Counted from the first letter of the stretch, positions 1 to 37,396 are shown. The stretch is 64,000 bases of DNA from Elusimicrobiota bacterium (GCA_043826435.1 JBDRQF010000053.1:896-64895); one strand, 5' to 3'. The notes: generated from the sequence alone by a model not told the origin. Translations and numbers: made by a program.

Positions 1-17
1 CTGACCTTGGTTCTGGT

Positions 18-3000
18 GTGACCACAGGACAGTACTCAATTTCAGGTGCAGGTATTGGCTGGACGGACATTTTTAATATTCCTACCGGGACACAGGCGTA
101 CACATCCAACTGGGGTCTGCAGTCAGGTCACTGGGGACTGTTAACCCCAGGAACAAACTATGTTTCTGTCCGGGGTTTTGATAAAGTTAATCTATCAACC
201 AGTGTGCCAAATTTATTCTTGGTGCTCAAGGATACCGAGCCACCCGCCGGCATCACAAATCTAACATGTAATCCGGGAATATCAGGGGGAGAAATTTTAT
301 TGAGTTGGACTGCACCGCAGGATATTCCGAGCGGGGTTGAGAGTTATTTAGTAAAATATACTACGGGTCCGCAGTTTATTAACCGTACTGATTTTTTGGC
401 TCGTGGGACAACATTTTATCAGTCCTGGACACCCCTTTTGTCGTCCCAGACAGAAAACAAATCAGTTACTGGACTTATAGAGGGAAGCACATATTATATT
501 GGTATTTTAAGTAAAGACAGAACAACGCCGCCTACAAATTATTCTCCACTGCTATATGGTTCAACAAACCAGTCATCTGCACAAAGAGTTGCCCCGGCGC
601 GGATAACAACCCTTGCGGGCTCTTCTCCTGGTGACTTAAATCCTTCAGAGGTCCGACTGACATGGACTGCAGTTGGCGATGATGGGACAACGGGTAATGC
701 CTCAGGATATGTTGTTAAATATGCGACTTATGCCTTTACATCAGCGGAGTGGAATAGCTCTGTTGTATCAACTTACACGCAGTCATGGACTCCTCTCTCA
801 TCAGGCTCACAGGAGGAAAAAGTACTTTCAATGCCACAGTCAGGGACAACCTATTATTTTGCAATCAGGGTATTTGATGACGCATCTCCGGGAGAGAATT
901 ATTCACTAATGTCCAATACAGTTGCAGTCCAGTCACGACCAACAGGCCCTGCTGATGGCATGATCGTATTCCCAGACGGCACATCAGGAACGCCTAAATA
1001 CCGCAAATACACAGCAGCAAATAATTCTTGGGGAACGACATCAGATGCAGCAGGTAGTGCAGGAACAGTCAGATGGGCGGTACTTCGTGCCTGCCCCACC
1101 ATCAGAAACGAAAAACTTCTTGGTATTCAGTCAGGCGGTGGAACAGAACCCGATGGTCGGCTATATTTACAACGATGGAATGGCAGCACATGGGCGGGGA
1201 TGTCACCATTGACTCCTTCGTCACAAATAAATTCTACAAAATATGATTCCAGGTATCGGGCGTTTGATATTGCCTATGAGCAGACAAACGGTAGGGCGAT
1301 GATTGTGTTTTCAACAAACGGCGTGGGTGCGGTTCAATATCACCTGTGGTCATCCACTGCTGAAGCGTTTGTTATATACGGTGGAACGGTCCCACTTTCT
1401 GGCTCCAGCGGGGTTGTCCGTTGGGTCCGTTTAGAGCCGCAACCTGGGACAAACCGGATAATGTTGTCAGCACTTGATGCAAACAATGACCTTTACTCTA
1501 TCTGTTGGAATGGTTCGTCCTGGGTTGAGGGGAATATGAATACCGTCGGGACAGCGGTCAATATATATCAGTGTTATGATGTCGCCTGGGAATTGACCTC
1601 CGGGAGATGTTTGGTTCTCTGGGCTGAAGGAACTGCTACACAATATAAAATTTATACTCCCGGAACTGGTTGGGGAATTGCAACAGCAGGACCCAACCCC
1701 GCTGCTACTGTAAACTGGATAAAACTTGCCTCTGACAGGGTTAGCGGAACAAACCGTATAGGTGCCTCAATACTGGATGCCTCCGGGGCACCCAATGACT
1801 GGTGGGTGAGTATATGGGAAGGCAGTTCATGGATTAATACGACGGAAATATCCGCCAGTATGGATGCCGCAACCCAGCGACTTATGGACATTGCCTGGGA
1901 AAAAGACGGAAGGTGCATTGTCGTCGGAGTGCAGAATGCAGCACCTGCAAGTTCCCTGAGTTACGCTATATGGTCGGCAGGTTGGTCGGGTCTTACGACA
2001 CTCTCCGATGATTTGGGAAATTCCGTTGACCTGAGATGGTTACAACTTATTCCTGACCCGAACTCCAATAAAATGATTGTTGCAGGGACAAATGCAAACA
2101 CGTCAAACAATGCCTCTGTAAGGACGCAGAACTGGTCGGGGACATCCTGGTCGGGTGTGACCGCCCACACTGCTCTGGCTCCTTCCGGCACTTATGAGTG
2201 TGCAGTCATTACTCTGGATAGACACGATACAGTCGCACCTACTTTTACCAATAACCAATCAGGAGATGGGATATGGCGTTCAATAAATAATGGTGTGTAC
2301 GATGTTGACTTCTTTGACACGGGCGACTCTAAACTTTCAAAGGTCCAGACGCAGTTGGCATCAGGTTCAGGTGGCAGCGGCGTTTACAGGACATGGACGG
2401 ATGAAATTACCGGAATTAACGCGGAGTCCTATACAACTAACTGGGGTTTGACCGGGACTACATGGCAGCAGTTAAATCAGGGAAAAACATTCATATCGCT
2501 TAAAATTTTTGACGGTGTAGGAAACAATGTTTCACTCACAGATGCATTTTATGTTCAGAAGGATACACAGCCACCAACTATTACTAACAACATGGCCGGT
2601 GGACTTACAACATGGTTCAATAATAACCCGGGTGCTGTGATGGATATTGATTTTGCTGACCAGTCAGGGTTATCACTTCTTTCTACGGCACAATATTTAA
2701 TATATGCACAGTCAAATATGACGGGCTCACAGATTGTTGTCGGGACAATATTTAACTATGCACCTTCTCGTTTGGGATGGACTGATAACTTTGGTTTGAA
2801 TACAGGTCACTGGGAATTGTTATTGAATTCAACCAACTATGTTTCAGTTAGATGTTTTGATGTTGCCGGTTCAACACGGACAGCCATTGACGCATTTGTG
2901 GTCTTAAAGGATACTGTCCCGCCAGCAGGTATTACAGGGTTGTCTGCGCTTCCTGGTGGCTTTAAGGGAGCGATAGCCCTTACATGGACCGCTCCGTCGG

Positions 3001-6000
3001 ACACAGGTTCTGGAAAAGTGAGACAATATATGATAAAATATTCATCCACGGTTGAAATCTCAACGGATGGCCAGTTTGATTCAGCCATGACATGGCCAAA
3101 TAATATCATCCCGTCATCAGCAGGGACAACGGAGAATATAACACTCACAGGGCTTGACATAAACACCACATATTATTTCCGTCTAAAATCAAAGGATGTT
3201 TCAGAGCCAGTGTCTCTCTCATCATGGTCTGTAATGTCAAGTTCTGCCGGGTGCAGACCGCAGAGGGCGAATGTTTATATAAACGACATTGTCCCGTCTT
3301 TGTCGGCAGGTTCTGACTGGGTAGAACTCTTCAGCAACCTGTCGGCGAGTCAGACGCTCAATGGGTGGACGCTCGTGTATAACCAGGGCAGTATTGATTC
3401 GCCCGGCAGCGAATCAACCGTGTGGACCGGCGGGGCGGCTCACTACGTGTCTTCAGGCGGATTTTTTGTAATAGACGGGCTCTCACTTGATTCTTCCCAG
3501 AGTTATCATGTCCAACTAAGGGACAACCTGAACCGCCTGATAGACATTGTCCAGTGGCCCGCAGGGCTGGTTTCTGGCAATTCGTTTAGCCGTATTACAG
3601 ACGGAAATGACAATTATTTTGAAATTGACCCGACTCCAACAAAGAACTATGCCAACCACACAACTACGGGCGTTATAAAACTGAATGAGATTGACTATGT
3701 TTCTTCAGAAGAGTTTATTGAGATATACAACTCCTCGGATACTGTCCAGTCCATGACCGGCTGGTCTGTCAGGAATTACAACAATATCGTATTCAGGTGG
3801 ACAAGGCAGTGCTATCCACGAACATTTTCAGGGCTGTGTTGGACTTCCGTTGACAATACAGGCAAGACGTGGACGAACGCTTTTGGTAGCGGCGGGCTGG
3901 ACAGTGTGTCTGATTTTGTAGTCCTTGAAAATAATTCCGGGCAGGTTATTGACAGGACTACCTGGCAGTCAGGTTCAACTTACAGATACCGGAATTACAA
4001 GGGACAATTAGTTTCTTACGGCGCACCTGCGCCGGGTGGTGCGGTGTCAGGAGAGACCATAGGCAGACAACCGTCCGAGGGTGCGGATACGGACAATGAC
4101 TCAAACGACTGGATTGTGTTTTCTGCATCTTCCCTTGGCAGGAGGAACAACAATCCGACGCCAGCAACAACAAACAATTTGGGTTATCCTGCGTCTGATT
4201 CTTTCATCCCCCGAAGAGCAAAACTTGAACTAACCCTCGGGTCTGACTCATCCGGTGGCTGGACAGATACTTTATGGTTTGTCCGCACAGGGGGTTCAGC
4301 GGACAACAGGTCGCCACACATTTATCGTCTCACTGACCTGGGATTTGTTCTGTCTTCAATATCTGCACAGACAACTCGGCATGTCTGGATAAACAGACCC
4401 GACATTGATGGTTGGACACTTATTAACGGGACAATCTACAAATGTATTTTGAATACAGATACCGGTTCAGGTGCAACCCCTCAGATAATCCCGAGCAATA
4501 TCACTTATGATGCATCAGTCCACACTATTAGTGTTGTTGATTGTGCCAAACCACTGGTCAACAATGGTAAAAGGACAGCGATGCTCAGGGCTGATATAAA
4601 GTCAAACAGCCCGTCAGGCGCAAATGCAATCGGCGTTTCAATGGTGAAAGTAAAATTGACAGACGGCTCCGGCACAGCCCTTACAACCCTGCAGGCGCAG
4701 AGTATTTTTGGAAATATATACCTTATTGCAGACAGTTTAACGTCGGGCAGCACCGGGGTTTATCAGTATGAGATGGACACTGGCACTGCCGCCCATGCGA
4801 GTAGCAGTGAAATTTCACTGGATGGGGACGGCTACCAGACGATAAACTTATCCACCCCGAACACTGCTGGAAGGGTTTCAGCAGGGCAGTCAAAAATTTA
4901 TTTTATGGTCGTTGACCTTACGGATAATGCGGACTCGCAATCACCCAATAATTTCAGGGCGGGGATGGATGCTGATTCAGACACTACTCTTGTTGATATG
5001 CCATCCCTGGTCTATCAGGATATTCAGGGCACATCGCTTGTTACCTCTGTGTCGTCTTATGCTATTGCCCCTGCGTCCGCACCTGCCGGCACGTACTGGC
5101 CTTATGATTCAGGCACTATAACAACGATTGAATCAACCCCTGAAATTTATGATAAAATATACGTGGGCATGGGCAACGGCACTCTGATAGCATTGAGCGA
5201 TGCAGGTGAGTATAATTCTGATTATGCGGGGACAGGGGTTTTGCTCACCCCTTTAAGAAGTGATTACTGGACAGGCGAAAATAATTATGTATATTTTGTA
5301 AGTAAGTCGGGATATATATATAAGAATACGACGGCAAATAGTAATGTGTGGACAAGGACGCTTTCTGCAGACATAAGTTCGGATTTTTCCGCCTACACCT
5401 CGCTTTATGCAGGCACATCAGACGGCAGGTTTTACCGTCTGGATACCTCGGGCGCTGACGTATGGAGCCCCGCGCCGACGCTGCCCAGCGGGGCGATGGC
5501 CGGCTCACCAGTGATAGACGATGGTTTTTCGACGGGCATAGGCGAAAGTTCTGTGTGGGTGGGGACGAATTCCGGATGGGTTTACCGTTTGAAATTATTA
5601 GATGCAACGGTTCTTTCTTCAACCTATGTCGCCTCTGCAATAACGACTTCTATATGTTATGATTCGGGATATTATGCCCAGTCATTGAACAAAATGAATG
5701 TGTATTTTGGTACAGAAAATGGAAAGGTATATTGTAGATATGGTTTGACACTCAGCAGTGTGCCGGCTAACTGGCAGGACTGCAGTTTCAATTCAAAAAT
5801 AAACTCACTGGTCGGGCCGCAGATAGAAGGCACGGACAAGTATTTATATTTGGCGTGCGAAAACGGCATGGTGTATAAAATAAATGCGGAAACAGGTGCG
5901 ACGGTCTGGTCATACCAGGCGGGCGGTGCGGTCAGGGCAGGATTGTTCGCTGCTACCTCTATGGCAAGTCCAGATATTAATTCCCCATTTTACAACCTCA

Positions 6001-6185
6001 ATTACATATACTTCGGCTGTGAAGACGGCAACCTGTATGCTGTCCACAAAGACACGGCAGGGATGAAGCAGGGTTTCCCGGTGTCCGTCGGAGCGGAAAT
6101 AAAAGGGAGCATAAAATATGACACATCAAATCACAGGGTTTATTTCGGAGCGAATAATGGAAAGATATACTGCATCCAGCAGTAA
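18..6185 (+). CDS. Giant secreted surface protein, 5' end cut by the window edge. It has FN3-like repeats, four ~95-aa Trp-rich repeats, three ~120-aa repeats ending in 'KDTxPP', two lamin-tail domains (LTD) and a C-terminal PQQ-like beta-propeller. There is no C-terminal sorting domain.
   Basis: The frame is open from the window edge. The FN3 signature 'LSWTAP...YLVKY...TYY' recurs. The LTD motifs are 'VYINDIVPSL...WVELFSN...NGWTL' and 'IKLNEIDYVSSEEFIEIYN...MTGWSV'. The PQQ-like blades are 'VYFGTENGKVYC', 'YIYFGCEDGNLYAV' and 'RVYFGANNGKIYCI'. Confidence 0.8.
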   Translation: MTTGQYSISGAGIGWTDIFNIPTGTQAYTSNWGLQSGHWGLLTPGTNYVSVRGFDKVNLSTSVPNLFLVLKDTEPPAGITNLTCNPGISGGEILLSWTAPQDIPSGVESYLVKYTTGPQFINRTDFLARGTTFYQSWTPLLSSQTENKSVTGLIEGSTYYIGILSKDRTTPPTNYSPLLYGSTNQSSAQRVAPARITTLAGSSPGDLNPSEVRLTWTAVGDDGTTGNASGYVVKYATYAFTSAEWNSSVVSTYTQSWTPLSSGSQEEKVLSMPQSGTTYYFAIRVFDDASPGENYSLMSNTVAVQSRPTGPADGMIVFPDGTSGTPKYRKYTAANNSWGTTSDAAGSAGTVRWAVLRACPTIRNEKLLGIQSGGGTEPDGRLYLQRWNGSTWAGMSPLTPSSQINSTKYDSRYRAFDIAYEQTNGRAMIVFSTNGVGAVQYHLWSSTAEAFVIYGGTVPLSGSSGVVRWVRLEPQPGTNRIMLSALDANNDLYSICWNGSSWVEGNMNTVGTAVNIYQCYDVAWELTSGRCLVLWAEGTATQYKIYTPGTGWGIATAGPNPAATVNWIKLASDRVSGTNRIGASILDASGAPNDWWVSIWEGSSWINTTEISASMDAATQRLMDIAWEKDGRCIVVGVQNAAPASSLSYAIWSAGWSGLTTLSDDLGNSVDLRWLQLIPDPNSNKMIVAGTNANTSNNASVRTQNWSGTSWSGVTAHTALAPSGTYECAVITLDRHDTVAPTFTNNQSGDGIWRSINNGVYDVDFFDTGDSKLSKVQTQLASGSGGSGVYRTWTDEITGINAESYTTNWGLTGTTWQQLNQGKTFISLKIFDGVGNNVSLTDAFYVQKDTQPPTITNNMAGGLTTWFNNNPGAVMDIDFADQSGLSLLSTAQYLIYAQSNMTGSQIVVGTIFNYAPSRLGWTDNFGLNTGHWELLLNSTNYVSVRCFDVAGSTRTAIDAFVVLKDTVPPAGITGLSALPGGFKGAIALTWTAPSDTGSGKVRQYMIKYSSTVEISTDGQFDSAMTWPNNIIPSSAGTTENITLTGLDINTTYYFRLKSKDVSEPVSLSSWSVMSSSAGCRPQRANVYINDIVPSLSAGSDWVELFSNLSASQTLNGWTLVYNQGSIDSPGSESTVWTGGAAHYVSSGGFFVIDGLSLDSSQSYHVQLRDNLNRLIDIVQWPAGLVSGNSFSRITDGNDNYFEIDPTPTKNYANHTTTGVIKLNEIDYVSSEEFIEIYNSSDTVQSMTGWSVRNYNNIVFRWTRQCYPRTFSGLCWTSVDNTGKTWTNAFGSGGLDSVSDFVVLENNSGQVIDRTTWQSGSTYRYRNYKGQLVSYGAPAPGGAVSGETIGRQPSEGADTDNDSNDWIVFSASSLGRRNNNPTPATTNNLGYPASDSFIPRRAKLELTLGSDSSGGWTDTLWFVRTGGSADNRSPHIYRLTDLGFVLSSISAQTTRHVWINRPDIDGWTLINGTIYKCILNTDTGSGATPQIIPSNITYDASVHTISVVDCAKPLVNNGKRTAMLRADIKSNSPSGANAIGVSMVKVKLTDGSGTALTTLQAQSIFGNIYLIADSLTSGSTGVYQYEMDTGTAAHASSSEISLDGDGYQTINLSTPNTAGRVSAGQSKIYFMVVDLTDNADSQSPNNFRAGMDADSDTTLVDMPSLVYQDIQGTSLVTSVSSYAIAPASAPAGTYWPYDSGTITTIESTPEIYDKIYVGMGNGTLIALSDAGEYNSDYAGTGVLLTPLRSDYWTGENNYVYFVSKSGYIYKNTTANSNVWTRTLSADISSDFSAYTSLYAGTSDGRFYRLDTSGADVWSPAPTLPSGAMAGSPVIDDGFSTGIGESSVWVGTNSGWVYRLKLLDATVLSSTYVASAITTSICYDSGYYAQSLNKMNVYFGTENGKVYCRYGLTLSSVPANWQDCSFNSKINSLVGPQIEGTDKYLYLACENGMVYKINAETGATVWSYQAGGAVRAGLFAATSMASPDINSPFYNLNYIYFGCEDGNLYAVHKDTAGMKQGFPVSVGAEIKGSIKYDTSNHRVYFGANNGKIYCIQQ

Positions 6186-6194
6186 CACCAGCGG

Positions 6195-6393
6195 TGTCAT
6201 TGCGAGCCACCGTGTCATTGCGAGGGGCGAAGCCCCGAAGCAATCTCTTCGCCCACTCTGTCATTGCGAGGAGCGAAGCCCCGAAGCAATCCCCTTTTAC
6301 CGACGAGATTGCCACGCCCTTCGGGCTCGCAATGACAATCCAACGGGTATTCAAATGATGTGTCATTGCGAGGCGCAGCCGAAGCAATCCCTT
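6195..6393. repeat. Cluster of MITE-like palindromic repeat units (TGTCATTGCGAGG...GAAGCAATC) at the junction of the two giant ORFs. Three to four forward units and one inverted unit (6308-6337).
   Basis: Forward units begin near 6195, 6213, 6259 and 6361. 'GATTGCCACGCCCTTCGGGCTCGCAATGACA' at 6308-6338 is the reverse complement of the unit start. The same termini recur at 8.6 kb, 12.6 kb and 55.9 kb. Confidence 0.8.
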
Positions 6394-8634
6394 TTGCTAT
6401 GGGCTATCCTTATCTGTTTTGTCTCTGTTGATTTCACATCCGCCGCCTCATGGAAGGCGTTCAGAAGAGGCGCCGGCAGGGAGGGGTTTATCAACGAGCA
6501 GGCATACCCTTACGCAGCCAACCCGCCCGGTTGGAATTATAACGTATTTTCTCCGGTTTTGTCTTCCCCTGCCGTCAAGGACGGCGTAATATATTTTGGC
6601 TCAAGAGACGGTTCCGTATGGGCATTAAATGCCCTGACAGGGGAAGTCCTGTGGCAGTACTCAACAAGCGGTTGGGTTGATTCAACCCCTGTCGTTGGAG
6701 ATTCCTTCGTCTATGTCCTGTCCAGGGACGGTGTCGTTTATTGTTTCAAAAAGAAGTATGGGGAGGAGGAGGACATGCGTCCCGTCTGGGAATATAACAC
6801 GTCCGCCACGAACTGTTCTTCTCCCCTGTACACCGACGGAAAGATTATTTTTCTTACCGGCCCTGCATTTGCAGGGACCGAGCAGAAAGCATACCTGTAC
6901 TCGCTGGACGCCCTGACGGGCGCCCTGGTTGAAAAAAGGCAATTGGGCCAGTTCAGTTATTCATCCGTTGCAACCGATAAAGACCGTTTTTACTTCTGCA
7001 CCAGCGACGGTAACTTTAACTGTTATGAAGGGGGCAAACCGCTCTGGACGAAAAAGACAATGGGCGGGCTGTACTTCACTACGCTTGCGGTTAAAGACGG
7101 GAAGGTTTACGGTTACGCCGGTTCTATTGACAACAGGGTTTATTCAATTTCCGGGGACGGTTCCGTTCTGTGGTCATCCCCTGAATTGAGCAACGTGGCT
7201 ACCGACGGAACTTCAATATCCGTTGCCGGGGATAAGGTGGTCGTGAACGTTTACCCGTTCGGGAAGGGATGGAACGGTTCGCAGTACACCTCATGGGCAG
7301 GCCGTCTTTACTGCCTTGATTTGCAAAACGGGACGACGCTCTGGTTCAAGGAATACACACCTGCAATAGACCCGTCCAAATCATACGGGCTTACTTCTTC
7401 TCCTGCAATCGCCGGCAAGGTTGTTTATGTCGGCACGACCGAAGAAGTCCTGTATGCGCTTGACATTGACAGCGGGACGGTTATAGCGAATTACTCTCTG
7501 GACGGCGGGATTGTCGCTTCGCCGGCTGTTTCAAACGGATGGATTTATATCGGCACGCTTTCAGGCAAATTCTACGGCATTAAGGCGGAAAAGATAACGG
7601 CGATATCTTCACCTGACGACGGGGATTCGGTTGGCGGCAGGGTTCCGTTAAAGGGACATGTAGTCCAGAAGCCGGCTGAATACGAAAAATACCGGATTGA
7701 CTATTCCCTCAATGATAACCCCTCAGTTTACGGGACCATTGCAGAATCATCCGCCACACCGTCAATAGAAGGGGACACACTCGCAACATGGGACGTTACG
7801 GGACTGCCCCAGGGCGAATACACAGTCAAACTTTATACCCTTGGTTCAACCGGAGGCGTTTTAGGAAGTGCTGCTGTGCAGTATTTTGTCAACCAGTCAA
7901 CGAGCGTTTTTGTCGGCAGGCAGGGCGGCACACTGCAGTTCTTCAGTGACGGCACTGAGATAGTAATCCCAGAGGGTGCGGTTGAGCAGACCGTTGAGAT
8001 TTCAGCCAGGAAATACACCGACCAGGAAGATTGGACGGGCAAAAACACGGGTATTCCGTCGGACGTCCGGGCCGCGGGAGACGCCAGAGAGTTTACCGTA
8101 TCGCCGTTGGTGGAGTTTAGCAAGAATGTCACGATTAAACTCCCTTATGAACTTGGTAAAAGCGGCATTTCACTGTCGGCAAAAGAGAAAAATCTCCGGC
8201 TCTTCTGGTGGGATGCAGACAAAAACAAATGGCGTATGGTCAATAACTCAACCCCGCATTCCGACGACACCCCGAAAAGGGTGTGGGCTGACATTCCGCA
8301 TTTTTCAACGTACAGGGTAGGCGAGTTTATTTCATCCGATACATTGCTGTTGGATGTTTATACCTACCCGAACCCCGCTCGTCTGACGGACAAACTTTAT
8401 TTTAAATTTTCATTGGGGGCTGAGAAAACGGACGTCATCATAGACGTTTACAACGTTGCAGGCGAATTAGTGGCGCACCTTGTGCGTCCGGGCCAGGACG
8501 ACGATGCGGGCCAGGTAAGGCAGTTTGAATGGGACATATCAAACATTGCAAGCGGTATGTATGTTTACAGGGTTGAGGCGAACTCATCCGGCAGGAAACA
8601 GTCGGTTACCAAAAAACTTGCAATAATACATTAG
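6355..8634 (+). CDS. Secreted PQQ-like beta-propeller protein with a conserved C-terminal cassette (two Ig-like domains plus a T9SS-type C-terminal sorting domain). It may be the split-off C-terminal half of the upstream giant gene.
   Basis: ATG at 6355 lies inside the repeat element and gives a signal-peptide-like N-terminus (MMCHCEAQPKQSLLLWAILICFVSVDFTSAAS). The ORF-track frame 6118-6354 is only the repeat read through. The PQQ blades include 'VIYFGSRDGSVWALNALTGEVLWQY'. The C-terminus is 'YTYPNPARLTDKLYF...VYNVAGELVA...ASGMYVYRVEA...KKLAIIH'. Confidence 0.7.
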   Translation: MMCHCEAQPKQSLLLWAILICFVSVDFTSAASWKAFRRGAGREGFINEQAYPYAANPPGWNYNVFSPVLSSPAVKDGVIYFGSRDGSVWALNALTGEVLWQYSTSGWVDSTPVVGDSFVYVLSRDGVVYCFKKKYGEEEDMRPVWEYNTSATNCSSPLYTDGKIIFLTGPAFAGTEQKAYLYSLDALTGALVEKRQLGQFSYSSVATDKDRFYFCTSDGNFNCYEGGKPLWTKKTMGGLYFTTLAVKDGKVYGYAGSIDNRVYSISGDGSVLWSSPELSNVATDGTSISVAGDKVVVNVYPFGKGWNGSQYTSWAGRLYCLDLQNGTTLWFKEYTPAIDPSKSYGLTSSPAIAGKVVYVGTTEEVLYALDIDSGTVIANYSLDGGIVASPAVSNGWIYIGTLSGKFYGIKAEKITAISSPDDGDSVGGRVPLKGHVVQKPAEYEKYRIDYSLNDNPSVYGTIAESSATPSIEGDTLATWDVTGLPQGEYTVKLYTLGSTGGVLGSAAVQYFVNQSTSVFVGRQGGTLQFFSDGTEIVIPEGAVEQTVEISARKYTDQEDWTGKNTGIPSDVRAAGDAREFTVSPLVEFSKNVTIKLPYELGKSGISLSAKEKNLRLFWWDADKNKWRMVNNSTPHSDDTPKRVWADIPHFSTYRVGEFISSDTLLLDVYTYPNPARLTDKLYFKFSLGAEKTDVIIDVYNVAGELVAHLVRPGQDDDAGQVRQFEWDISNIASGMYVYRVEANSSGRKQSVTKKLAIIH

Positions 8635-8718
8635 CGTCATTGCGAGGGCGAAGCCCGTGGCAATCTTGTAAATACATTAGCGTCATTGCGAGGGCGAAGC
8701 CCGTGGCAATCTTGTAAA
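8627..8718. repeat. Perfect tandem duplication of a 47-bp unit that includes the last codons and stop of the upstream gene plus one MITE-like unit (ACATTAGCGTCATTGCGAGGGCGAAGCCCGTGGCAATCTTGTAAA).
   Basis: Two identical copies follow each other directly. The first copy contains the TAG stop at 8632-8634. Confidence 0.85.
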
Positions 8719-8730: not shown

Positions 8731-10371
8731 ATGAGGTTTTTTATGAAAATGAAAACTGTTAGCTGCATTTTTTCGCTGGGATTGTTTCTGGTTTTATTAC
8801 GGCCGACGTTCTATGGGACGCAGTTGAGGGCGGACGTCCGAATTCACCCCGACGCCGGCAACACCTCCGCCGCCTTTCTGAAGTTGAGCATAGGGGCAAG
8901 GCCGATATCCATGGGTAATAGTTTTGTTGCCCTTGCCGACGACGTGAACGCCCTCTGGTGGAACCCCGCTGGACTTGTCTCTGCGACGGAAAAAACGGCT
9001 GGCATTACCCACAACGAACACTTCCAGGACATAAGGCATGAGTTTGCCGGGTTCGTTTGTCCCCTCGGGGATGCCGGGGAAAATGGGGATACCCGCCGTA
9101 ATACGGATGCCGGGTTGCAAAAACATGTTGAGCGCCGGGCGATTGGGTTCGCTTTGTTAGGCCTTTATACCAAAAAGGAACTGGAAGGCAGAAGAGGGCT
9201 GAATGAGTTGGATCCCTACGAGCCGCTTACTCCGGTTGAATATTATTTTATGGTGTATGATATAGCGGCGCAGGTTTCGTATGCAATGCGTCTGCACAGG
9301 AACCTTGATGCGGGTTGTTCAATAAAGGGCATCCAGCAGACCATTGACGACGTTTCTGCCTGGGGCGGTGCGGTTGATGCCGGCGTTTTATACAGGCATC
9401 CCGGTTTAAATAAATGGCAGTTTGGCGCCGTTGTCCAGAACGCCGGGCCTTCAATAAAATTCATTGAGAAGGGCTTCCCGCTCCCGCTTACCTTCAGGGC
9501 CGGAATGAATTACAGGCATTCGGACAAACTGACGATTGTTTCTGATTTTGTCCAGCCCATAGACAACTATCTCTTTGTGTCGGCCGGGGTAGAATATAAA
9601 CCGATAAAACTTTTATCGCTACGCGCCGGTTACAGGTACCGTTTATACGGGCTGGAATTGGGAGACCTTTCAGGGCTGTCCTGCGGGTTGGGGGTTGATT
9701 TTTCTGGCTTTAACCTGGACTACGCCTTTGTGCCGTTCGGCGCACTGGGGGTTTCTCACCGCCTGTCTCTTTCCATGAAGATAGGCACGGTGTTCGGCAA
9801 AAAGGCAGACGCACCTGCATCCGCAGAACCGGCCGAAATACGGCAAAAGCCCCCGGCTCCGCTCCCGATTTTGACCGCTGAAAAAACAAAAGTTGATTTG
9901 TCAAAAATCCCGTTCGTTTACAGGCCATTCACGGCGAAAACCAATCTGCGGGACATAAACCCGTCGGGGATCGCGGTGTTCAGGTTTGAGATTGAAGACA
10001 GCACGGGCGGGATTTCCGTAATACATGGGACGGTGAGATCGCGTTCCTTTATGGCCAGGGTTGATTTTGAGATAGGAGAATGGACGCCCCTACCCGGCTC
10101 GCATGTCTCCGGTATGGAAGTGGTCAGATACTTTAACGTCAAAAAGAATTTTGCCGAAGAGGTCATCGGGGCGGAGATTACCCTGCGTCTCCCGAAGGCG
10201 GATATCGTCCGGGGACAGGGGAAAATTTACGTCCAACTGCTGGACGGCAGCGGTACGATTATTGAGCCGGAAATTTCCGAGGAGGGGGAATATTTGTATT
10301 ACCGTTTCCGTCTTGATAAACTCTCGCCATTTGCGGTGGTGAAACAGGGGAGAAATCCAATCAAAAATTAA
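8731..10371 (+). CDS. PorV/PorQ-family-like (FadL-type) outer-membrane beta-barrel protein with an extra C-terminal domain of about 190 aa
   Basis: The N-terminus is a signal peptide followed by 'FLKLSIGARPISMGNSFVALADDVNALWWNPAGL', which is shared with the two 323-aa paralogs downstream of the other cargo genes. Alternating beta-strand patterning continues to 'FVPFGALGVSHRLSLSM'. After a Pro/Ala linker comes a further domain (aa ~350-546). Confidence 0.55.
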   Translation: MRFFMKMKTVSCIFSLGLFLVLLRPTFYGTQLRADVRIHPDAGNTSAAFLKLSIGARPISMGNSFVALADDVNALWWNPAGLVSATEKTAGITHNEHFQDIRHEFAGFVCPLGDAGENGDTRRNTDAGLQKHVERRAIGFALLGLYTKKELEGRRGLNELDPYEPLTPVEYYFMVYDIAAQVSYAMRLHRNLDAGCSIKGIQQTIDDVSAWGGAVDAGVLYRHPGLNKWQFGAVVQNAGPSIKFIEKGFPLPLTFRAGMNYRHSDKLTIVSDFVQPIDNYLFVSAGVEYKPIKLLSLRAGYRYRLYGLELGDLSGLSCGLGVDFSGFNLDYAFVPFGALGVSHRLSLSMKIGTVFGKKADAPASAEPAEIRQKPPAPLPILTAEKTKVDLSKIPFVYRPFTAKTNLRDINPSGIAVFRFEIEDSTGGISVIHGTVRSRSFMARVDFEIGEWTPLPGSHVSGMEVVRYFNVKKNFAEEVIGAEITLRLPKADIVRGQGKIYVQLLDGSGTIIEPEISEEGEYLYYRFRLDKLSPFAVVKQGRNPIKN

Positions 10372-10413: not shown

Positions 10414-11593
10414 ATGAATAAACTAAAACTTGGAAAATTTGAAACAAAAAATATTGAATACAAAGAGGCAAAAAGTCGGTTGCCTGAAAACACTTATAAG
10501 ACGATTTCATCTTTTGCAAACACAAAAGGTGGAGTAATCTATTTGGGTATAAAACAGGATGGAGATAGGATAATCAGGCAGGGAGTGGAAAATCCGCAAA
10601 AGATTGTTGATGATTTGGTTTCAACGGTCAGTCAGAAGTATAATTTTTGTCCAGTCATTAAACCCGTCATAGAAAAGACAGGGATATTCAGAGGTTTTAT
10701 CAGGAGCGAGAAGGTTCACTTGATGCGCATACATTACCATGGCAGGACTGCTTCTTTTTGGTAAAACTACGGAAATTAAAAGGCATGTCCCTCATTTCAG
10801 GATTGATGTAATCAGGATAAGGGGAATAGAATGGGGCAAGGATAAAGACCCTTTCTTGTCTGCCGACTTATTCGGCAATCTTTTAAATATCAGGATACAG
10901 GTCATTGATATATTTGAGAGATTTTTCCTGACGCCGTTTAAGCTCGGTAAAGACCTGACCCGTATAGACGATGACCCGTTCAAGAATGCGTTGAGAGAAG
11001 CTCTGAGCAATCTCCTGATGCACCAGAACTATTTTCATTATTCTCCTTCACAAATCAGGATTTATAATGACAGAATTGAATTTTATAATCCCGGGTATTC
11101 ACTTAAAGACCCTGATAATTTTGCAACTCCCGGCTCTGAATTGCGTAATAGCCTGATTACTCCTGTGTTTTACGATATGGGTTGGGCTGAATCAAAAGGT
11201 ACAGGTTTTCGGACGCAGATTTTAGAATTGAAAAAATACGGATTACCGGAAGCCAAATGGGAAAGTGATGAGAAAAATGATAAGTTTACAATAGTATTTC
11301 CTTACCCCGAGGAACAGGTTGGTCAACGAGTCGCCCCACAAGTCACTGACCAAGTCACCGCACAAGTTACCGCACAAGTGGAAAAGAGAGACAGGATAGC
11401 TAAAATATTAAAATTTTGCGAGCAGCCGCAAACATTAAAAGAAATGATGCAATTCATAAATCTGAAACACAGGGTATACTTTTTAAAAGAAATATTAACA
11501 CCTTTATTAGAGAAAAAATATTTAAAGCGGACAATACCCGATAAACCAAAAAGCAGGTTTCAGAAATACATAACGAGTAAAAGGATTAAATGA
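10414..11593 (+). pseudogene. AlbA_2 (Schlafen-like) + HATPase_c_4 + wHTH putative transcriptional regulator ('RecG-C-terminal-like/Fic-associated' family), split by a frameshift near 10740-10765
   Basis: ORF 10414-10764 carries the AlbA_2 motif 'ISSFANTKGGVIYLGI'. It overlaps ORF 10739-11593 in another frame, which begins with the family-typical 'AGLLLFGK', carries an HATPase_c_4-like core, and has '[14 protein letters not shown]' linker repeats plus a wHTH tail. Confidence 0.65.
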
Positions 11594-11661
11594 AAGACCA
11601 CTCCCGGAAATTCTTGAAGATATCAAAACGCTTGATGAAAAATCAAAAGAACTGGATAAAG

Positions 11662-11693
11662 AATTAAAAAAGATATTCAGCCAGATAAAATTT
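11662..11693. repeat. Right copy of the 32-bp direct repeat
   Basis: Identical to 10366-10397. Confidence 0.9.
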
Positions 11694-11757
11694 TAATGTG
11701 TTTTGTAGGGCAGAGATTTAGCCCTGCTAAGACAGATGTTAAAAACAGGAGAAAAAT

Positions 11758-12576
11758 GTGACAACAAAAATAGCGGTTTTCAAAGGTAAAGGTATCAGAA
11801 AAACAATTCATAAGAATGAATGGTGGTTTGTTATTGTGGATGTGATATCGGCATTAACGGATTCTACAGATCCAAGTGGCTATTTAAAAGATATGCGTAG
11901 AAGAGATGAGCAATTACATAAAGGGTGGGGGCAAATTGCCACCCCCCTTCCCGTTAAGACAGAGGGTGGCATACAAAAACTGAATTGTGCTAATACAGAA
12001 GGTATATTTCGTATTATTCAGACAATCCCTTCGCCAAAGGCGGAGCCGTTTAAGAGGTGGCTGGCAAAAGTCGGATATGAGCGTATACAGGAAATAGAAA
12101 ACCCCGAGATTGCAACCAAAAGGACAAGAGCATTATATAAGGCAAAAGGATATTCTGATGCATGGATAGAAAAAAGAGTGCGTGGAATTGCCATAAGAGA
12201 AGACCTGACAGATGAGTGGGATAAAAGAGGAGTAAAAGAAGATAGGGAGTATTCAATATTAACAGCAGAAATCTCAAAAGCAACCTTTGGGATGACACCA
12301 TCAGAATATATGAAATATAAAGGGCTGGATAGAGAAAACCTAAGAGACCATATGACTGACCTTGAACTGATTTTCTCAATGTTAGGTGAAGCTTCCACTA
12401 CAGAAATAACCAAGAAGAGAGATGCTCAGGGTTTTATAGAAAATAAGCAGGCAGCAAAAGAAGGCGGAAAAATTGCAGGAAATGCCAGGAAGGAACTTGA
12501 AAGAAAAGCAAAGAGTAAAGTGGTTTCCAAAGAGAATTACTTAGATAAACCACAGGATAAGAAACTATTAAAATGA
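11758..12576 (+). CDS. dinD: DNA-damage-inducible protein D (DinD)-like protein with an N-terminal Bro-N/KilA-N-type domain
   Basis: GTG start 8 nt after an AGGAG. The N-terminal 'EGGIQKLNCANTEGIFRIIQTIPSPKAEPFKRWLAKV' is Bro-N-like. The overall length (272 aa) and the C-terminal region resemble E. coli DinD. Confidence 0.55.
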   Translation: MTTKIAVFKGKGIRKTIHKNEWWFVIVDVISALTDSTDPSGYLKDMRRRDEQLHKGWGQIATPLPVKTEGGIQKLNCANTEGIFRIIQTIPSPKAEPFKRWLAKVGYERIQEIENPEIATKRTRALYKAKGYSDAWIEKRVRGIAIREDLTDEWDKRGVKEDREYSILTAEISKATFGMTPSEYMKYKGLDRENLRDHMTDLELIFSMLGEASTTEITKKRDAQGFIENKQAAKEGGKIAGNARKELERKAKSKVVSKENYLDKPQDKKLLK

Positions 12577-12624: not shown

Positions 12625-12660
12625 AGATGTCATTGCGAGGAATGTAATGACGAAGCAGTC
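12625..12660. repeat. Degenerate partial copy of the GTCATTGCGAGG repeat unit
   Basis: 'GTCATTGCGAGGAATGTAATGACGAAGCA' is seen directly in the sequence. Confidence 0.5.
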
Positions 12661-12848: not shown

Positions 12849-13664
12849 ATGAATAATCATACTATAGCAAAAAACATCCTAATTCACAAACAGATAGGTG
12901 AGGTTGTTTCTGAATTTAACAGGGAGAATATTGACTTTATACTCCTGAAGGGGGCGGCACTCATAGAGATATTTCCCGACTATGCCTTTTCCCGCGATAT
13001 GGAAGATATAGACATCCTGGTAAAAAAAAGGTCTTTTTTGATGGCGAAACACATCCTGATAAACATTGGATATTCCTGTGCAATAGAGGACCCTGGTGCA
13101 TTTTTTAAGCAGGGGTTTCCCGCCCGTATTGACCTGTGTGATGGGTTGTGGTATCTGGACAGATCCGAGAACATCCTGTTGTTTAAAGAAGCAAAAATTT
13201 TTTTTGATATATCCGTTCTTTCCCCGGAGGATTTTTACATCCATGTTTTTGCGCACGCCTTTTTACATCACGCCAGAAGAGAGAGGGCGTGGTTGGATGA
13301 CTTGGCATTGCTTTCCGAGAGGTGGGCAGAGACAATAGATAAAAAGACATTAAGTTTAAAAATAAAAAAATACGGGTTTGACAGGGTGAGTAGCAACCCT
13401 TTTTATAACTGGTTTCTTGACAAGGAAATACCGCTTAAAGGACACATATTCAGATTTTTTTTCCTCCCGGTGAGAAAAAAGTTTTTATACATCAACGACC
13501 TTTTATTCCCGTCAGTTGATTTTCTTACGGGGAGGTATTCATTGAGAGGGTTCGGGCAGGTAGTTTGTTTTAGAATCATAAGACCCGCAATGTTGTTGTT
13601 TCAGTTTTTGAGATTTCTAACAGGGGTTGTTGGTTCCCTGTTTTTGCGCACCCAAAGTACTTAA
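12849..13664 (+). CDS. NTP_transf_5-type (PF14907-like) nucleotidyltransferase of unknown function
   Basis: 'QIGEVVSEFNRENIDFILLKGAAL...DMEDIDILVKK...GY' matches the family's N-terminal signature. Confidence 0.5.
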   Translation: MNNHTIAKNILIHKQIGEVVSEFNRENIDFILLKGAALIEIFPDYAFSRDMEDIDILVKKRSFLMAKHILINIGYSCAIEDPGAFFKQGFPARIDLCDGLWYLDRSENILLFKEAKIFFDISVLSPEDFYIHVFAHAFLHHARRERAWLDDLALLSERWAETIDKKTLSLKIKKYGFDRVSSNPFYNWFLDKEIPLKGHIFRFFFLPVRKKFLYINDLLFPSVDFLTGRYSLRGFGQVVCFRIIRPAMLLFQFLRFLTGVVGSLFLRTQST

Positions 13665-14000: not shown

Positions 14001-15064
14001 ATGGAGCGAAGGAAATGGGACAGTGCAAAGAAGTTTGAGGTGGTAGTGGAAGGGCTAAAGAGCGGGGTGTCAATCAGTGAGATGTGCAATCGGCACCAGA
14101 TATCGCAGGCGCAGTATTACAAATGGCGAGACCAGTTCATCAACAACGGCAGAAAAGTGTTTGAGATGCCTGCTAAGAACAAGGGGAGGAGCGGTTGAAG
14201 CAGGAGATAAGGAAGTTAAAGACAATCATTGGAGATTTGACGACGGAGTTAAAAAAAAACGACTACGAGTGAAACGGGCAAAATCACAAAAAGTTATGAA
14301 AAGGAATGCGGGGATAGTATCACAGATAAAAGAGATAAAAAGCGAGCATCCTTTGTGGGGATTTCGCCGGGTGTGGGCGTATATAAGATTTTAGAGGGGG
14401 ATTTTGGTAAATCGGAAACGGATATATCGTTTGATGAAAGAAAACGATTTGCTGGTTAGTCAGATAAAAAAGTTAAAAGCGGCCAAGAAAAATTAGAGCG
14501 ACAAAACCCGGCGAGGTTTGGGGCATAGATATGACGAAGGTTCTCACAAAAACTGGTTGGATAAATTTGGTCATAGTGCTTGACTGGTACACAAAGAAAA
14601 TAGTTGGTTTTAATGCAGAAGTTTACTCACGAGCCGATGAGTGGCTTAAGGCGTTGAACTTTGTGGTATTGGAACAGTTTCCCAACGGCATAAAGGAACA
14701 CGGGCCTCTATCACTGGTAAGCGACAACGGGAGTCAGCCGACGAGCGTTAAATTTATGAAGGAAACGTCGCTGCTCGGCATAAAACAGATATTCGCCAGT
14801 TACGACAATCCGAAAGGCAACGCCGACACTGAGCGAGTAATAAGGAAGCTAAAAGAGGATTTGGTCTGGCCGAGAGAGTTTGAAAATATTTATGAGTTCA
14901 AAGATGCGCTGTGTAAATTGGTGAACGATTACAACACGGACTTTCCGCATTCGTCGTTGAATTATCTGACGCCGGTAAAGTTTGAAGAAATATACCTGGC
15001 TGACCTGGCGCAGCAAAATATATTAAACCAGGGGGCCTTAAACTCTAACTTATTTTTCGCTTGA
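14001..15064 (+). mobile_element. Decayed IS3-family insertion sequence: an OrfA HTH fragment, then an OrfB (DDE/rve integrase) broken by frameshifts and stops
   Basis: OrfA-like 'SISEMCNRHQISQAQYYKWRDQF'. OrfB N-terminal 'IKEIKSEHPLWGFRRVWAYIRF'. An in-frame stop precedes 'ATKPGEVWGIDMTKV...GWINLVIVLDWYTKKIVG', then comes the rve core ending '...LNYLTPVKFEE'. Inverted terminal repeats were not identified. Confidence 0.7.
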
Positions 15065-15914: not shown

Positions 15915-16219
15915 TTTATCAGTATATTCAACTTTTAGAAAATAAGATACGAATAGATAAAGTTATTCTCTTTGGTTCAAGTGCGAATGGAAAAATTGGA
16001 AGAAATAGTGACCTTGATATCATTATACTCTCGGATGACTTTAAGAAAATGAACTTCTTGAAAAGATTGGAACTTTTATCACGTGCGCGAGGCAGGGAAT
16101 GTATCTCGGTGCCAATGGATATTATTGGATATACTACAAAAGAGTTTTCCCGATCAAGTAAAGAATCATTAATTCTCGGGGAAGCCAAAAAGAACGGACA
16201 AGTAATTTGGTCAAGATAA
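15884..16219 (+). CDS. Minimal nucleotidyltransferase (MNT, Pol-beta superfamily), antitoxin partner of the HEPN protein
   Basis: 'ILFGSSANGKIGRNSDLDIIIL' matches the GS-x9-DxD NTase motif. The probable ATG at 15884 overlaps the HEPN 3' end. Confidence 0.7.
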   Translation: MAKRQVAREIVYQYIQLLENKIRIDKVILFGSSANGKIGRNSDLDIIILSDDFKKMNFLKRLELLSRARGRECISVPMDIIGYTTKEFSRSSKESLILGEAKKNGQVIWSR

Positions 16220-16237
16220 ATTATAGGGTTAGTTTGA

Positions 16238-16564
16238 TTGCTAAAAAATTTTTCTAAGAAAGAAATGATAGAAGTATATTCGTGGTTATTTGTATACAAG
16301 GAGTGGAGTAAACAGGAGAGAAAACCATTACAAGATAAGGGTTTTGAAGAAAGTTTCCGAGACTATCTTTGTAGGCATCAAATGAATTTTGATAGAGTGT
16401 CCAATGTTAGAGATATGGGATTTGGATTGTCTTACCAAACATTATCAGATATCCCTCATGAGTTAGATGTGATTTGTGTAAGAGGTAGTGAAATACATTC
16501 ACCTGGAGACGATGGAAACGATAGGAGTTTTGTTGTGAGGTCGTTTTATATAATTACAAGATAG
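16238..16564 (+). CDS. Hypothetical protein (108 aa) with no recognisable domain
   Basis: ORF with a TTG start (or the ATG at 16265). No signature recognised. Confidence 0.3.
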   Translation: MLKNFSKKEMIEVYSWLFVYKEWSKQERKPLQDKGFEESFRDYLCRHQMNFDRVSNVRDMGFGLSYQTLSDIPHELDVICVRGSEIHSPGDDGNDRSFVVRSFYIITR

Positions 16565-16575
16565 AGAAGTAAAAA

Positions 16576-18417: not shown

Positions 18418-18421
18418 AGTC

Positions 18422-20275: not shown

Positions 20276-20347
20276 TCTTTTACTAAATATACGAGAAAAG
20301 AGAATGAAAAGATTAAAAACCTGAATTTAATGGGGACAAAATAGTTC

Positions 20348-24904: not shown

Positions 24905-24930
24905 TAAATAAAACAAGGGGTAGAAAATCA

Positions 24931-25902
24931 ATGAATAAAAACATTATAAAAAAAGTTTTGGGATTATCAATTGGAAATATGTTATTATGCTGTTTTGCAG
25001 TAACTAATTGTTTATCAGAAACAACAGGTGCCTCTTTTCTAAAAATTGGTGTTGGAGCAAGACCGATTGCTATGGGTTCCGCATTCACAGCAGTAGCAAA
25101 CGATGTCACCGGGATATACTGGAATCCTGCCGGACTACTACAATTAACCAAAAGAGAAATTTCAGCAATGCATACAGAATGGATAGCAAACACACGGCTT
25201 GACTTTATTGGATATGCCCAGCCAACAAGAGCGGGTGTGTTTGGCTGTGGTATAATCTACTTATCACAGCAAGATATAGAAGGCAGAGATGAAAACCGAC
25301 AGATAACCAGTCCATTTGGTGCAAGTGACCTTGCAGTGACATTGAGTTATAGTCGTCACCTGACCGAGTTATCAAGATTAGTATCAGCAGGACTAAATGT
25401 AAAATTCATCCAGCAGAACATAGAAAATTATACAGCTCATGGAATAGCAATAGACATAGGCACACTTTATCAGACACCGATAAACAATCTCAAAGCAGGG
25501 CTATCAATTCAGAATATAGGACCACAGATGAAGTTCATCAGCCAGACATATAATCTACCCTTGACAGCGACATTTGGGATTGGGTACACAATGAGCGGAA
25601 TAGTCATTGCATTAGACCTCAAACAGCAGGTATATGAAGGCAGAACAATAATTTCAGCAGGAACAGAGTATTGTCCAATGAACTTAATTGTTCTGCGGAT
25701 AGGCTATGCTGGAAAGTTGACAGAAAGCATACTTTCAAACAGGGATATAATTCAAGGAAACAATACAGACAGCACAAACTTCACTGGCTTTGGTGCAGGG
25801 CTCGGCTTACGACTTTTTACCAACTATCAAATGGACTACTCATTTGCTCCTTATGGTCTGCTGGGGGATACACACAGGATAAGTTTTTTGGCAAGATTTT
25901 AG
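24931..25902 (+). CDS. PorV/PorQ-family-like outer-membrane beta-barrel protein (323 aa) directly downstream of the sorting-domain cargo gene
   Basis: Signal peptide, then 'TTGASFLKIGVGARPIAMGSAFTAVANDVTGIYWNPAGL'. Amphipathic beta-strand patterning to a C-terminal '...GLLGDTHRISFLARF'. About 80% aa identity to ORF 32574-33545. Confidence 0.55.
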   Translation: MNKNIIKKVLGLSIGNMLLCCFAVTNCLSETTGASFLKIGVGARPIAMGSAFTAVANDVTGIYWNPAGLLQLTKREISAMHTEWIANTRLDFIGYAQPTRAGVFGCGIIYLSQQDIEGRDENRQITSPFGASDLAVTLSYSRHLTELSRLVSAGLNVKFIQQNIENYTAHGIAIDIGTLYQTPINNLKAGLSIQNIGPQMKFISQTYNLPLTATFGIGYTMSGIVIALDLKQQVYEGRTIISAGTEYCPMNLIVLRIGYAGKLTESILSNRDIIQGNNTDSTNFTGFGAGLGLRLFTNYQMDYSFAPYGLLGDTHRISFLARF

Positions 25903-25959
25903 AAAGAGAGGTTATCAAAAGGGGAAAATTCCGAAAATCCCCTTGAATATCTTATAACT

Positions 25960-32316: not shown

Positions 32317-32573
32317 TGTTAAGTTATTCTTGATTTAGTCGATTTTCTGACATGGCGCACATCTGTTTCTTCTTTTGTTTTGATTTTTTCGGGTCTTTCA
32401 ATAAAGTGAGCAATCGGGGATAACTTCATCTAATATAGTGGGCAAAATTATCCTATTAACTTTAATTCTGCCACCCAAAATGCTCCACTTTTTTCCTTTC
32501 TTCCGTAATAAAGCAAAAATCTTAATCTGTCTGTACTACCCACTCTTTTAGAAAGACCTAAATAATGGAATGA

Positions 32574-33545: not shown

Positions 33546-33581
33546 TGATTTTCTACCTCTACAGTAGTTTCTTGCTCACTA

Positions 33582-36857: not shown

Positions 36858-36887
36858 ATGTTACACTTCCTTTATCCCAAGCGGTAA

Positions 36888-37265: not shown

Positions 37266-37396
37266 ATTGAATTTTTCGCCTGTATTGTTTTAAAATTTTT
37301 TTAATCACGATATAATATTTGATTGAAAGAAGGAATATAAATAGCATTTTCACCTGTACTGAAAACTTTTCCAGCATACAATTCTTTTATTGGTAA

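Follow-up and report, generated by a model that had tools for sequence, protein, structure and literature searches.

A cluster of probable REP-type hairpin repeats at the junction of two propeller-protein genes in an Elusimicrobiota bacterium

Two propeller-protein genes and the repeats between them

The window analyzed here, a stretch of 64,000 nt from a metagenome-assembled genome (MAG) of an Elusimicrobiota bacterium (GCA_043826435.1, contig JBDRQF010000053.1, positions 896-64895), contains two co-directional open reading frames, ORF1 and ORF2, that encode propeller proteins and are separated by a cluster of short hairpin repeats at 6195-6395. ORF1 (1-6185, plus strand) is the 3' part of a giant surface protein gene, with fn3 and LTD domains and a C-terminal eight-blade PQQ-like propeller, and terminates at a TAA stop codon (6183-6185). 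A first-pass annotation made from the window sequence had placed its start at position 18, but ORF1 runs off the window start and reaches at least 3835 aa in the sister assembly L125 (L125 1-10029). ORF2 (6355-8634, plus strand), annotated by NCBI as a protein of 759 aa, presents a signal peptide, an eight-blade PQQ-like propeller, a middle domain and a Por_Secre_tail, and is 100% identical to MFH2070878.1, a PQQ-binding-like beta-propeller repeat protein of an Elusimicrobiota bacterium encoded on a 102-kb contig. As the first-pass annotation had stated, the domain scan found no Por_Secre_tail in ORF1, whose C-terminal end is made of propeller blades, and placed the blades of ORF2 first and its sorting domain last.

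Eight blade motifs were located in ORF1 (at residues ~1719, 1762, 1801, 1851, 1899, 1947, 2002 and 2046) and eight in ORF2 (between ~79 and 409); a regular expression recovered six and five of these, respectively, and the remainder were read by eye from the translation. Neither propeller is thus a half, since each is complete with eight blades. In the orthologues examined, ORF1 invariably ends in the propeller and is devoid of a sorting domain, including the 6269-aa orthologue of locus L002 (L002 1-9994), while the small downstream partner always carries a Por_Secre_tail and, where the junction is free of repeats, overlaps the ORF1 stop codon or lies at most 49 nt away from it. This arrangement suggests that ORF1 and ORF2 form a conserved two-gene unit, the products of which possibly work together at the cell surface.

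The repeats between the two genes were first recognized through the 12-mer TGTCATTGCGAG, which, allowing up to one mismatch, matches the window 10 times against 0.14 expected matches, a count reached by none of 100 shuffled sequences. Five of these matches fall in the junction, within 6195-6372 (6195, 6213, 6259, 6326 on the minus strand, and 6361), in agreement with the earlier report of a repeat cluster of about 200 nt between the two genes; the others map to 8635, 8681, 12628 and 55839/55980. Covariance modeling identified four full units in the junction, three on the plus strand (6214-6245, 6260-6291 and 6362-6389) and one on the minus strand (6307-6336). A full unit is a hairpin of 28-32 nt that reads, from its 5' end, (C/T)GTC, ATTGC, GA, an inner stem with a GAA loop, GAA, GCAAT and C.

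The cluster opens 9 nt past the ORF1 stop codon with a fragment consisting only of the unit head (TGTCATTGCGAGCC, 6195-6208, plus strand). It is followed by full unit 1 (6213-6245, plus strand; tGTC-ATTGC-GA-GGGGC-GAA-GCCCC-GAA-GCAAT-C), a member of family D2 with 92% identity, which scores 53.6 bits under the covariance model (E-value 3e-9) and has a predicted hairpin of -15.1 kcal/mol (z -3.7). Forward unit 2 (6259-6291) and reverse unit 3 (6307-6337) then compose an inverted doublet (6259-6337, both strands; I3) in which a 15-nt spacer separates the units, the tails pointing inward and the heads outward, and which resembles the dimers known as REPINs (REP doublets forming hairpins, where REP stands for repetitive extragenic palindrome). 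The predicted fold of this doublet reaches -32.9 kcal/mol (z -4.6), a strength attained by none of 200 shuffled sequences. Units 1 and 2 together make up an imperfect 46-nt tandem (6207-6298), with the same period as a second tandem at 8625-8718. After a non-repeat spacer of 23 nt (6338-6360, plus strand), which holds the sequence ATGATG (6355-6360) and lies 5' of the last unit, the cluster closes with the solo unit 4 and its tail (6361-6395, plus strand; families D1 and D3; 37.6 bits under the covariance model).

Up to position 6355, the gap between ORF1 and ORF2 spans 169 nt and, save for the 9 nt past the stop codon and the 23-nt spacer, consists entirely of repeat sequence. All forward frames of the forward units are free of stop codons, and over 6186-6354 two frames out of three stay open, so that the long open frame through the repeats is an effect of composition. 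From its structure and placement, we interpret the cluster as very probably an insertion of about 200 nt of REP-type hairpin units, of the form tagged by CGTC or TGTC, into the junction of two genes.

Assemblies classically go wrong at repeats, and the window sequence was taken from a MAG, so a collapse or chimera at this position had to be weighed. An independent ENA assembly, L125 (ERZ27247117, contig k141_592996), which was reached via cluster member P0121, is 99.897% identical to the window over 13,582 nt (13 substitutions, one indel) and presents not a single difference in 6100-6460, holding the cluster base for base. This separately assembled contig also contains both copies of the 46-nt tandem at 8625-8718 while bearing its own substitutions and indel elsewhere; moreover, the units, at 30-46 nt, are shorter than one sequencing read, and synteny runs on at both sides of the cluster. 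On these sequence comparisons, an assembly artefact appears very unlikely, with hardly any probability left to it. Exact look-ups of ORF2 (translated from 6355, 6118 or 6157), of its 546-aa neighbor and of P0001 returned no contig on record.

Orthologous junctions are free of repeats

The first-pass annotation had proposed, as one explanation, that insertion of the repeats split an ancestral protein of about 2,900 aa. In that event, ORF1 would have lost its sorting domain and ORF2 gained a new start. The layout of the locus is what such a fission would leave behind, with ORF1 ending in blades and lacking a sorting domain, ORF2 opening with blades and the repeats placed exactly between them. 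The estimated length of the ancestor is nonetheless baseless, given that ORF1 extends beyond the window and attains at least 3835 aa in L125. At four syntenic Elusimicrobiota loci (L001, L002, L123 and L124), two separate genes are found with a junction devoid of repeats, which is precisely the arrangement that the annotation itself had named as contradicting fission. Junction lengths at these loci are -29, +6, -17 and +49 nt, respectively, versus +169 nt in the window. In L001 (GCA_030016915.1), the upstream product ends in GKIYCIQQ and the called start of the downstream gene overlaps it by 29 nt; in L002 (ERZ6864471), the 6269-aa upstream product ends in GKIEVLQE and the next ATG lies 6 nt on; in L123 (GCA_025060535.1), the upstream product ends in GGINVFKE and a 17-nt overlap places an ATG led by GGAGG just ahead of the stop codon; and in L124, an upstream product ending in TINVFKE is followed by a repeat-free spacer of 49 nt.

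The C-terminal 800 residues of ORF1 align over their full length with their counterparts in L001 (55% identity) and L002 (42%), the stop codon falling in the same alignment column in all three, and its position is also kept in L123 and L124. At none of the four syntenic loci are the two genes joined into one continuous protein. Likewise, the 120 best relatives of ORF2 range from 417 to 1317 aa, and no fusion of about 2,900 aa or more is present among them. Eight full-length stand-alone relatives (725-880 aa) possess their own initial methionine and a signal peptide that aligns with the ORF2 N-terminus, including a conserved AASW.FR motif matching LLLWAILICFVSVDFTSAAS|WKAFR in ORF2. A fission would therefore have to account for two genes with the stop codon at the aligned residue and no repeats at four orthologous loci, for a signal-peptide core and cleavage site in ORF2 that are homologous to those of stand-alone proteins, for a full set of eight blades in each ORF, and for ORF1 orthologues of up to 6269 aa that lack a sorting domain just as ORF1 does. 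We consider it vanishingly improbable.

Because the repeat-free orthologues already comprise two genes with a junction of nearly zero length, comparative evidence indicates that ORF1 and ORF2 have always been two genes and that the cluster is an insertion into their junction rather than the scar of a split gene. Alignment of the junction DNA with that of the orthologues makes a large insertion visible, at a divergence too great to fix its boundaries. A scan of metagenome contigs from JGI yielded no close relative of ORF2 and hence no near-identical empty site for comparison.

Start codon and signal peptide of ORF2

Translated from the ATG at 6355, which the NCBI Prokaryotic Genome Annotation Pipeline (PGAP) annotates as its start, ORF2 begins with MMCHCEAQPKQSLLLWAILICFVSVDFTSAAS|W. 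Codons 3-14 of this product (CHCEAQPKQSLL, 6361-6395) are encoded by unit 4 and constitute the n-region of the signal peptide, including its only basic residue, K10. Unique sequence that aligns with the relatives encodes the hydrophobic core and the cleavage site (WAILICFVSVDFTSAAS|W, 6400-6450), and the alignment with the eight full-length proteins delimits an ancestral, non-repeat part of the signal peptide, with the core and the AAS|W motif, at 6396-6450 (plus strand). The proposal that the repeats encode the signal-peptide-like N-terminus of ORF2 is hence accurate for the n-region, but not for the core or the cleavage site.

The ATG at 6355 itself resides in the 23-nt spacer and not in a conserved unit, the spacer being set apart from the unit because the reverse unit recurs identically at 55961-55991 next to another flank. 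It is preceded by only a weak Shine-Dalgarno-like GGG, 7 nt upstream. Nor is it the only candidate, as had been claimed, since the ORF2 frame is open from 6112 and contains in-frame ATG codons at 6118, 6157, 6355 and 6358. The notion of a repeat-derived start holds insofar as the annotated start codon abuts a unit and the next 12 codons are repeat sequence; it fails in that the codon belongs to the spacer, and the ATG at 6157 offers an alternative.

This alternative start (6157-6159, plus strand) overlaps the last 29 nt of ORF1 and has a GGAG sequence 6 nt upstream, which matches the Shine-Dalgarno consensus better than the GGG ahead of 6355. If translation began there, or at 6118, the cluster would be an in-frame N-terminal insertion within ORF2, comparable to those of the Rickettsia elements RPE-4 and RPE-6, and the locus would represent a variant of an insertion between separate genes, not its opposite. 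The codon corresponds by homology to the called start of L001, starts that overlap the upstream gene are standard in L001 and L123, the frame is open across the cluster, and the ENA gene call begins at this position, giving a product of 825 aa (P0121). Yet the ATG derives from the conserved Asn/Asp-Gly codons of ORF1, so that both it and the GGAG can be read as by-products of the conserved F-G-A-N-(N/D)-G codons; an open frame is what composition would predict; PGAP took 6355; and the hydrophobic core would begin about 78 residues into the protein, as opposed to within 20-45 residues of the N-terminus in the relatives. Since this last property is shared by every relative, we favor 6355 as the somewhat likelier start on sequence grounds and regard 6157 as possible but doubtful. 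The public annotations of ORF2 differ by 66 N-terminal residues (P0121, 825 aa; MFH2070878.1, 759 aa), and the longer form translates the whole repeat cluster.

The cluster was also scanned for signals by which it could provide ORF2 with a transcript of its own, as the first-pass annotation had suggested in proposing a repeat-derived promoter. A single sigma-70-like match was found (ATGACA-16-AATGAT, 6332-6359), partly inside a repeat unit. It agrees with the consensus, which may not be that of the host phylum, at 9 of 12 positions, a quality met 0.7 times per region in shuffled sequence, and its -10 element ends at 6359, so transcription would begin downstream of the ATG at 6355 and could not yield an mRNA with that start. 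A promoter function is therefore quite improbable. No intrinsic terminator was detected on the plus strand of 6186-6400.

A further possibility is that the insertion damaged the translation initiation of ORF2, which would then be poorly expressed or a young pseudogene whose frame is intact only because the insertion is recent. The weak Shine-Dalgarno sequence at 6355 would fit such damage, as would a likely loss of translational coupling to ORF1 and the placement of the start codon between arms (6326-6337 and 6361-6372) that can pair in the predicted fold. In that fold, however, the start codon lies partly in a loop, and pairing involves the G of the first ATG together with the second ATG; the 759-codon frame is intact, with conserved motifs up to the last residue; and the identical cluster is kept in a second population with 13 single-nucleotide polymorphisms elsewhere. 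We thus judge damage to ORF2 improbable.

Relation to known repeat classes

Repeats tagged by CGTC or TGTC have been described by Di Nocera, De Gregorio and Rocco (2013, BMC Genomics 14:522, PMC3733652) as a class of REPs that includes the Neisseria dRS3 element and the Rickettsia elements RPE-4 and RPE-6. As described there, these REPs carry an unpaired 5' tetranucleotide, CGTC, with TGTC or CCTC also allowed, followed by a stem of 8-9 bp whose first two pairs are A/T, a loop of 4-5 nt and a short unpaired tail with consensus CCA. They mostly occur as inverted dimers that follow an ORF and sit between co-directional or convergent neighbors, with occasional copies in N- or C-terminal coding sequence (Rickettsia RPE-4 and RPE-6), and have no dedicated transposase; the same source notes that REPs in N-terminal coding regions may stem from misannotated starts. 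The window units share with this description the unpaired (C/T)GTC head, the stem beginning with A/T pairs, the inverted dimers, the location downstream of or between co-directional ORFs and the occasional copy at a coding end. As to the short tail, CCA ends 43% of the cross-phylum copies, and the window copies end in CYC or CTT. No associated transposase gene was seen among the 12 window proteins scanned or within 400 nt of the motif at 120 loci. The stem departs from the description: in place of 8-9 bp and a 4-5-nt loop, as worded in the text, the window units show a 5-bp outer stem, an internal loop of 2x3 nt (GA/GAA), a covarying inner stem of 3-5 bp and a 3-nt loop. The repeat sequence was not found in the supplements of PMC3733652.

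The inverted doublets at 6259-6337 and 55839-55991 further resemble the REPINs associated with RAYTs (REP-associated tyrosine transposases; Bertels and Rainey 2011, PMC3116915; PMC3337134) in that an inverted pair of REPs with a short spacer forms one long hairpin, and in that copies are extragenic and numerous. REPINs have a GTAG head where the units reported here have CGTC, and REPIN-RAYT systems are, according to the abstracts, mostly inherited vertically within a lineage, whereas the present units span phyla. No RAYT or Y1_Tnp match to Pfam was obtained among the 12 proteins scanned in the 64-kb window.

In Escherichia coli, REPs and bacterial interspersed mosaic elements (BIMEs) hinder 3'-5' RNA decay and influence how strongly neighboring cistrons are expressed relative to one another. 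The window units resemble these elements in being hairpin repeats placed directly after stop codons, between cistrons of one presumed transcription unit, but belong to an unrelated sequence family and also enter the downstream coding sequence.

The first-pass annotation had called the cluster MITE-like (miniature inverted-repeat transposable element). Similar to the Correia elements and the Coxiella MITEs that alter gene ends (PMC5896051), the units are small, non-autonomous and palindromic and contribute coding or start sequence, and to that extent the comparison stands. They are, however, only about 30 nt long; inverted arms are present, but no parent insertion sequence (IS) was found, and no target-site duplication exists at the doublet flanks (CCCACTCT and AATCCAAC), which are not direct repeats. 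Because neither a target-site duplication nor a parent IS was seen, the REP class fits better than the MITE class. Kink-turns, a hammerhead-like core, integron attC sites and IS terminal repeats were also considered as the identity of the unit and rejected on inspection of the motif geometry.

Taken together, these comparisons make it highly likely that a nest of REP-type units was inserted between two genes that were always separate. Several points weigh against this reading. The closest repeat-free orthologue is only about 50% identical, so that the limits of the insertion and the original start codon can be deduced only from distant comparisons. The stem and loop geometry of the units differs from the text descriptions of the four CGTC families in the 2013 paper. 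No mobilizing enzyme was identified among the 12 window proteins scanned or the neighbors of 120 loci carrying the unit. Finally, the ATG at 6355 has a poor Shine-Dalgarno match, and use of the ATG at 6157 would bury the signal peptide at the depth noted above.

The unit across bacterial phyla

One genome per species was scanned with the pattern GTCATTGCGAG-N8-16-CGAAGCAATC, yielding at least 120 loci (L003-L122). Among the matches listed, about 20 phyla, as counted from record titles, carry the unit (C/T)GTC-ATTGC-GA-[helix]-GAA-GCAAT-CCA; PMC3733652 lists five phyla, with no mention of the Elusimicrobiota. Carriers among these matches include isolates or complete genomes of Bradyrhizobium, Mucilaginibacter, Pedobacter, Chryseobacterium, Nostoc, Helicobacter rodentium and Chloroflexus, together with members of the candidate phyla radiation (CPR), Omnitrophota, Armatimonadota, Verrucomicrobiota, Atribacterota and others. 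The unit was also found on plasmids or chromids (H1-H10) of Methylosinus, Novosphingobium, Methylocystis, Calothrix and Legionella, where the matched positions carry no annotation. Its usual form elsewhere is a palindrome of 80-110 nt that opens with a forward 32-nt unit and closes with a reverse unit; between them, CCAG and CTGG border a spacer of 10-40 nt. The doublet at 6259-6337 has the same layout. A covariance model (R1) built on 25 copies, all of them from other phyla, recovered eight window units at E<0.01.

Structural conservation was assessed on 97 distinct copies. In the inner helix, 48 cells changed on both sides, against 9.0 ± 2.2 in shuffled alignments, and slid controls scored far lower; as the alignment was fitted to the model and its flanks were fixed by the search pattern, this test constitutes support rather than proof. 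The outer stem ATTGC...GCAAT is nearly invariant (A-U in 95, U-A in 96 and U-A in 95 of the 97 distinct rows), partly by construction of that pattern; the window units, unlike the cross-phylum rows, were chosen without pattern-fixed flanks. Across 143 cross-phylum copies, the base preceding GTC is C in 82 (57%) and T in 53 (37%), and the 3' tail is CCA in 62 (43%), CTC in 41 and CCC in 15, with the window copies ending in CTC, CCC, CCC, CTC, CTT and CTT. The commonest inner stem, G-GA-GC-GAA-GC-GA-C, amounts to tandem G.A pairs around a GCGAAGC mini-hairpin, a structure that is unusually stable as DNA. The unit also gives rise to recurrent spurious peptides, among them ...DCFASLAMT, ...LLRFARNDG and VIARSEATKQS.

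All-against-all BLASTP of six-frame ORFs within 400 nt of the motif at the 120 loci revealed no recurring protein gene other than pseudo-ORFs made by the repeat itself. No Rfam family matched the window at gathering score, and relaxing the threshold to E<=10 for 6100-6460 and for a canonical copy in locus L011 produced only noise, with microRNA and transfer-messenger RNA models far below threshold. Text searches of the literature for the repeat, its reverse complement, sub-strings and encoded peptides (FARNDG, ASLAMT) retrieved only chance matches to primers. The near-invariant outer stem and internal loop in about 20 phyla, the compensatory changes in the inner helix, the lack of a linked transposase and the stop-free forward frames could together suggest that the unit is more than selfish DNA in decay, namely a structure-selected DNA or RNA module that a host factor of wide distribution recognizes. 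We put this forward as a speculation that is rather unlikely to hold; if it did, such a design would allow the unit to become established at the ends of genes and even to provide start regions or signal-peptide n-regions.

A model for the junction

We propose that a nest of REP-type units landed in the nearly zero-length junction of two co-directional genes that were always separate. The insertion would have fallen in the single tolerant spot of the locus, past the ORF1 stop codon and ahead of the hydrophobic core of the ORF2 signal peptide. ORF2 may then be translated from its presumed start at 6355, with the last unit supplying an n-region of 12 residues, or from the older, overlapping ATG at 6157, in which case the stop-free repeats would be read in frame as an N-terminal extension of 66 residues. 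Cleavage at the conserved AAS|W would yield an identical mature protein from either start, which may be why the insertion was tolerated. By analogy with E. coli REPs, likely side effects would be the loss of translational coupling between ORF1 and ORF2 and the presence of stable RNA hairpins between two cistrons of one transcript.

The case adds one more instance to a known type of repeat and is an ordinary example of a known phenomenon. It nevertheless bears on annotation, as REP-type repeats are stop-free and GC-rich and extend frames, generate spurious ORFs and shift predicted starts, and adjacent propeller genes with a repeat between them can mimic a broken giant gene. It also illustrates cleanly one place within coding sequence where such repeats can be tolerated, namely the signal-peptide n-region that cleavage removes. 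With the present data, REPs of the CGTC type, which the 2013 study described from five phyla, are seen in the Elusimicrobiota and in about twenty phyla, with an internal loop and a covarying inner helix, and this spread keeps alive the question, raised in PMC3733652, of what mobilizes or maintains such REPs.

Other copies and neighboring features in the window

Further copies of the unit lie at three other sites. The first is a perfect 46-nt tandem of two copies (8625-8718, plus strand), each comprising the last 10 nt of ORF2, with its TAG stop codon, and one REP-type unit (8635-8665 and 8681-8711), the first unit beginning directly after the ORF2 stop codon. L125 also has the tandem in two copies, a C>T change and a 1-nt deletion marking the first one, and the duplication is consequently real. 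The direct repeat ATACATTAG at 8626/8672 is part of this tandem duplication and not a target-site duplication. A solitary unit (12628-12660, plus strand; 43.6 bits) is located 52 nt after the stop codon of a Bro-N gene.

The third site is a second inverted doublet (55839-55991, minus strand) with a spacer of about 75 nt, situated between two co-directional minus-strand genes. One of its units begins 4 nt after the stop codon of a WbqC-like gene (55996-56694, minus strand), and the other ends 7 nt ahead of the ATG of an AAA_22 ATPase gene (55016-55831, minus strand). Its reverse unit (55961-55991) is identical to that at 6307-6337, the flanks being different. Counting the ORF1-ORF2 junction, units thus begin 9, 0, 52 and 4 nt past stop codons at the four sites, all of which lie between co-directional ORFs. 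Unit heads read tGTC at 6213, 6259, 6361, 6337 (minus strand), 12628 and 55991 (minus strand), and cGTC at 8635 and 8681.

Downstream of ORF2, three genes (SLFN_AlbA_2-like, HATPase_c_4/Fic-like_C and Bro-N; 10414-12576) lie between a UPF0164-like gene (8731-10371) and an NTP_transf_5 gene (12849-13664), which are adjacent to each other in two relatives (L002 14010-16456 and L123 6932-9249). GC content drops from ~0.51 to ~0.40 over these three genes, the solitary unit at 12628-12660 lies at their right edge, and the group is also present in L125; it looks like an inserted mobile or defense-type cassette. A 177-aa ORF with integrase-core domains (rve and rve_3; 14531-15064), adjoining a low-GC stretch, is probably a fragment of an IS3/IS481-type transposase. 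The window as a whole is mosaic in composition, with stretches of 0.29-0.38 GC (16000-26000, 32000-40000 and 44000-48000) set against others of 0.46-0.52.

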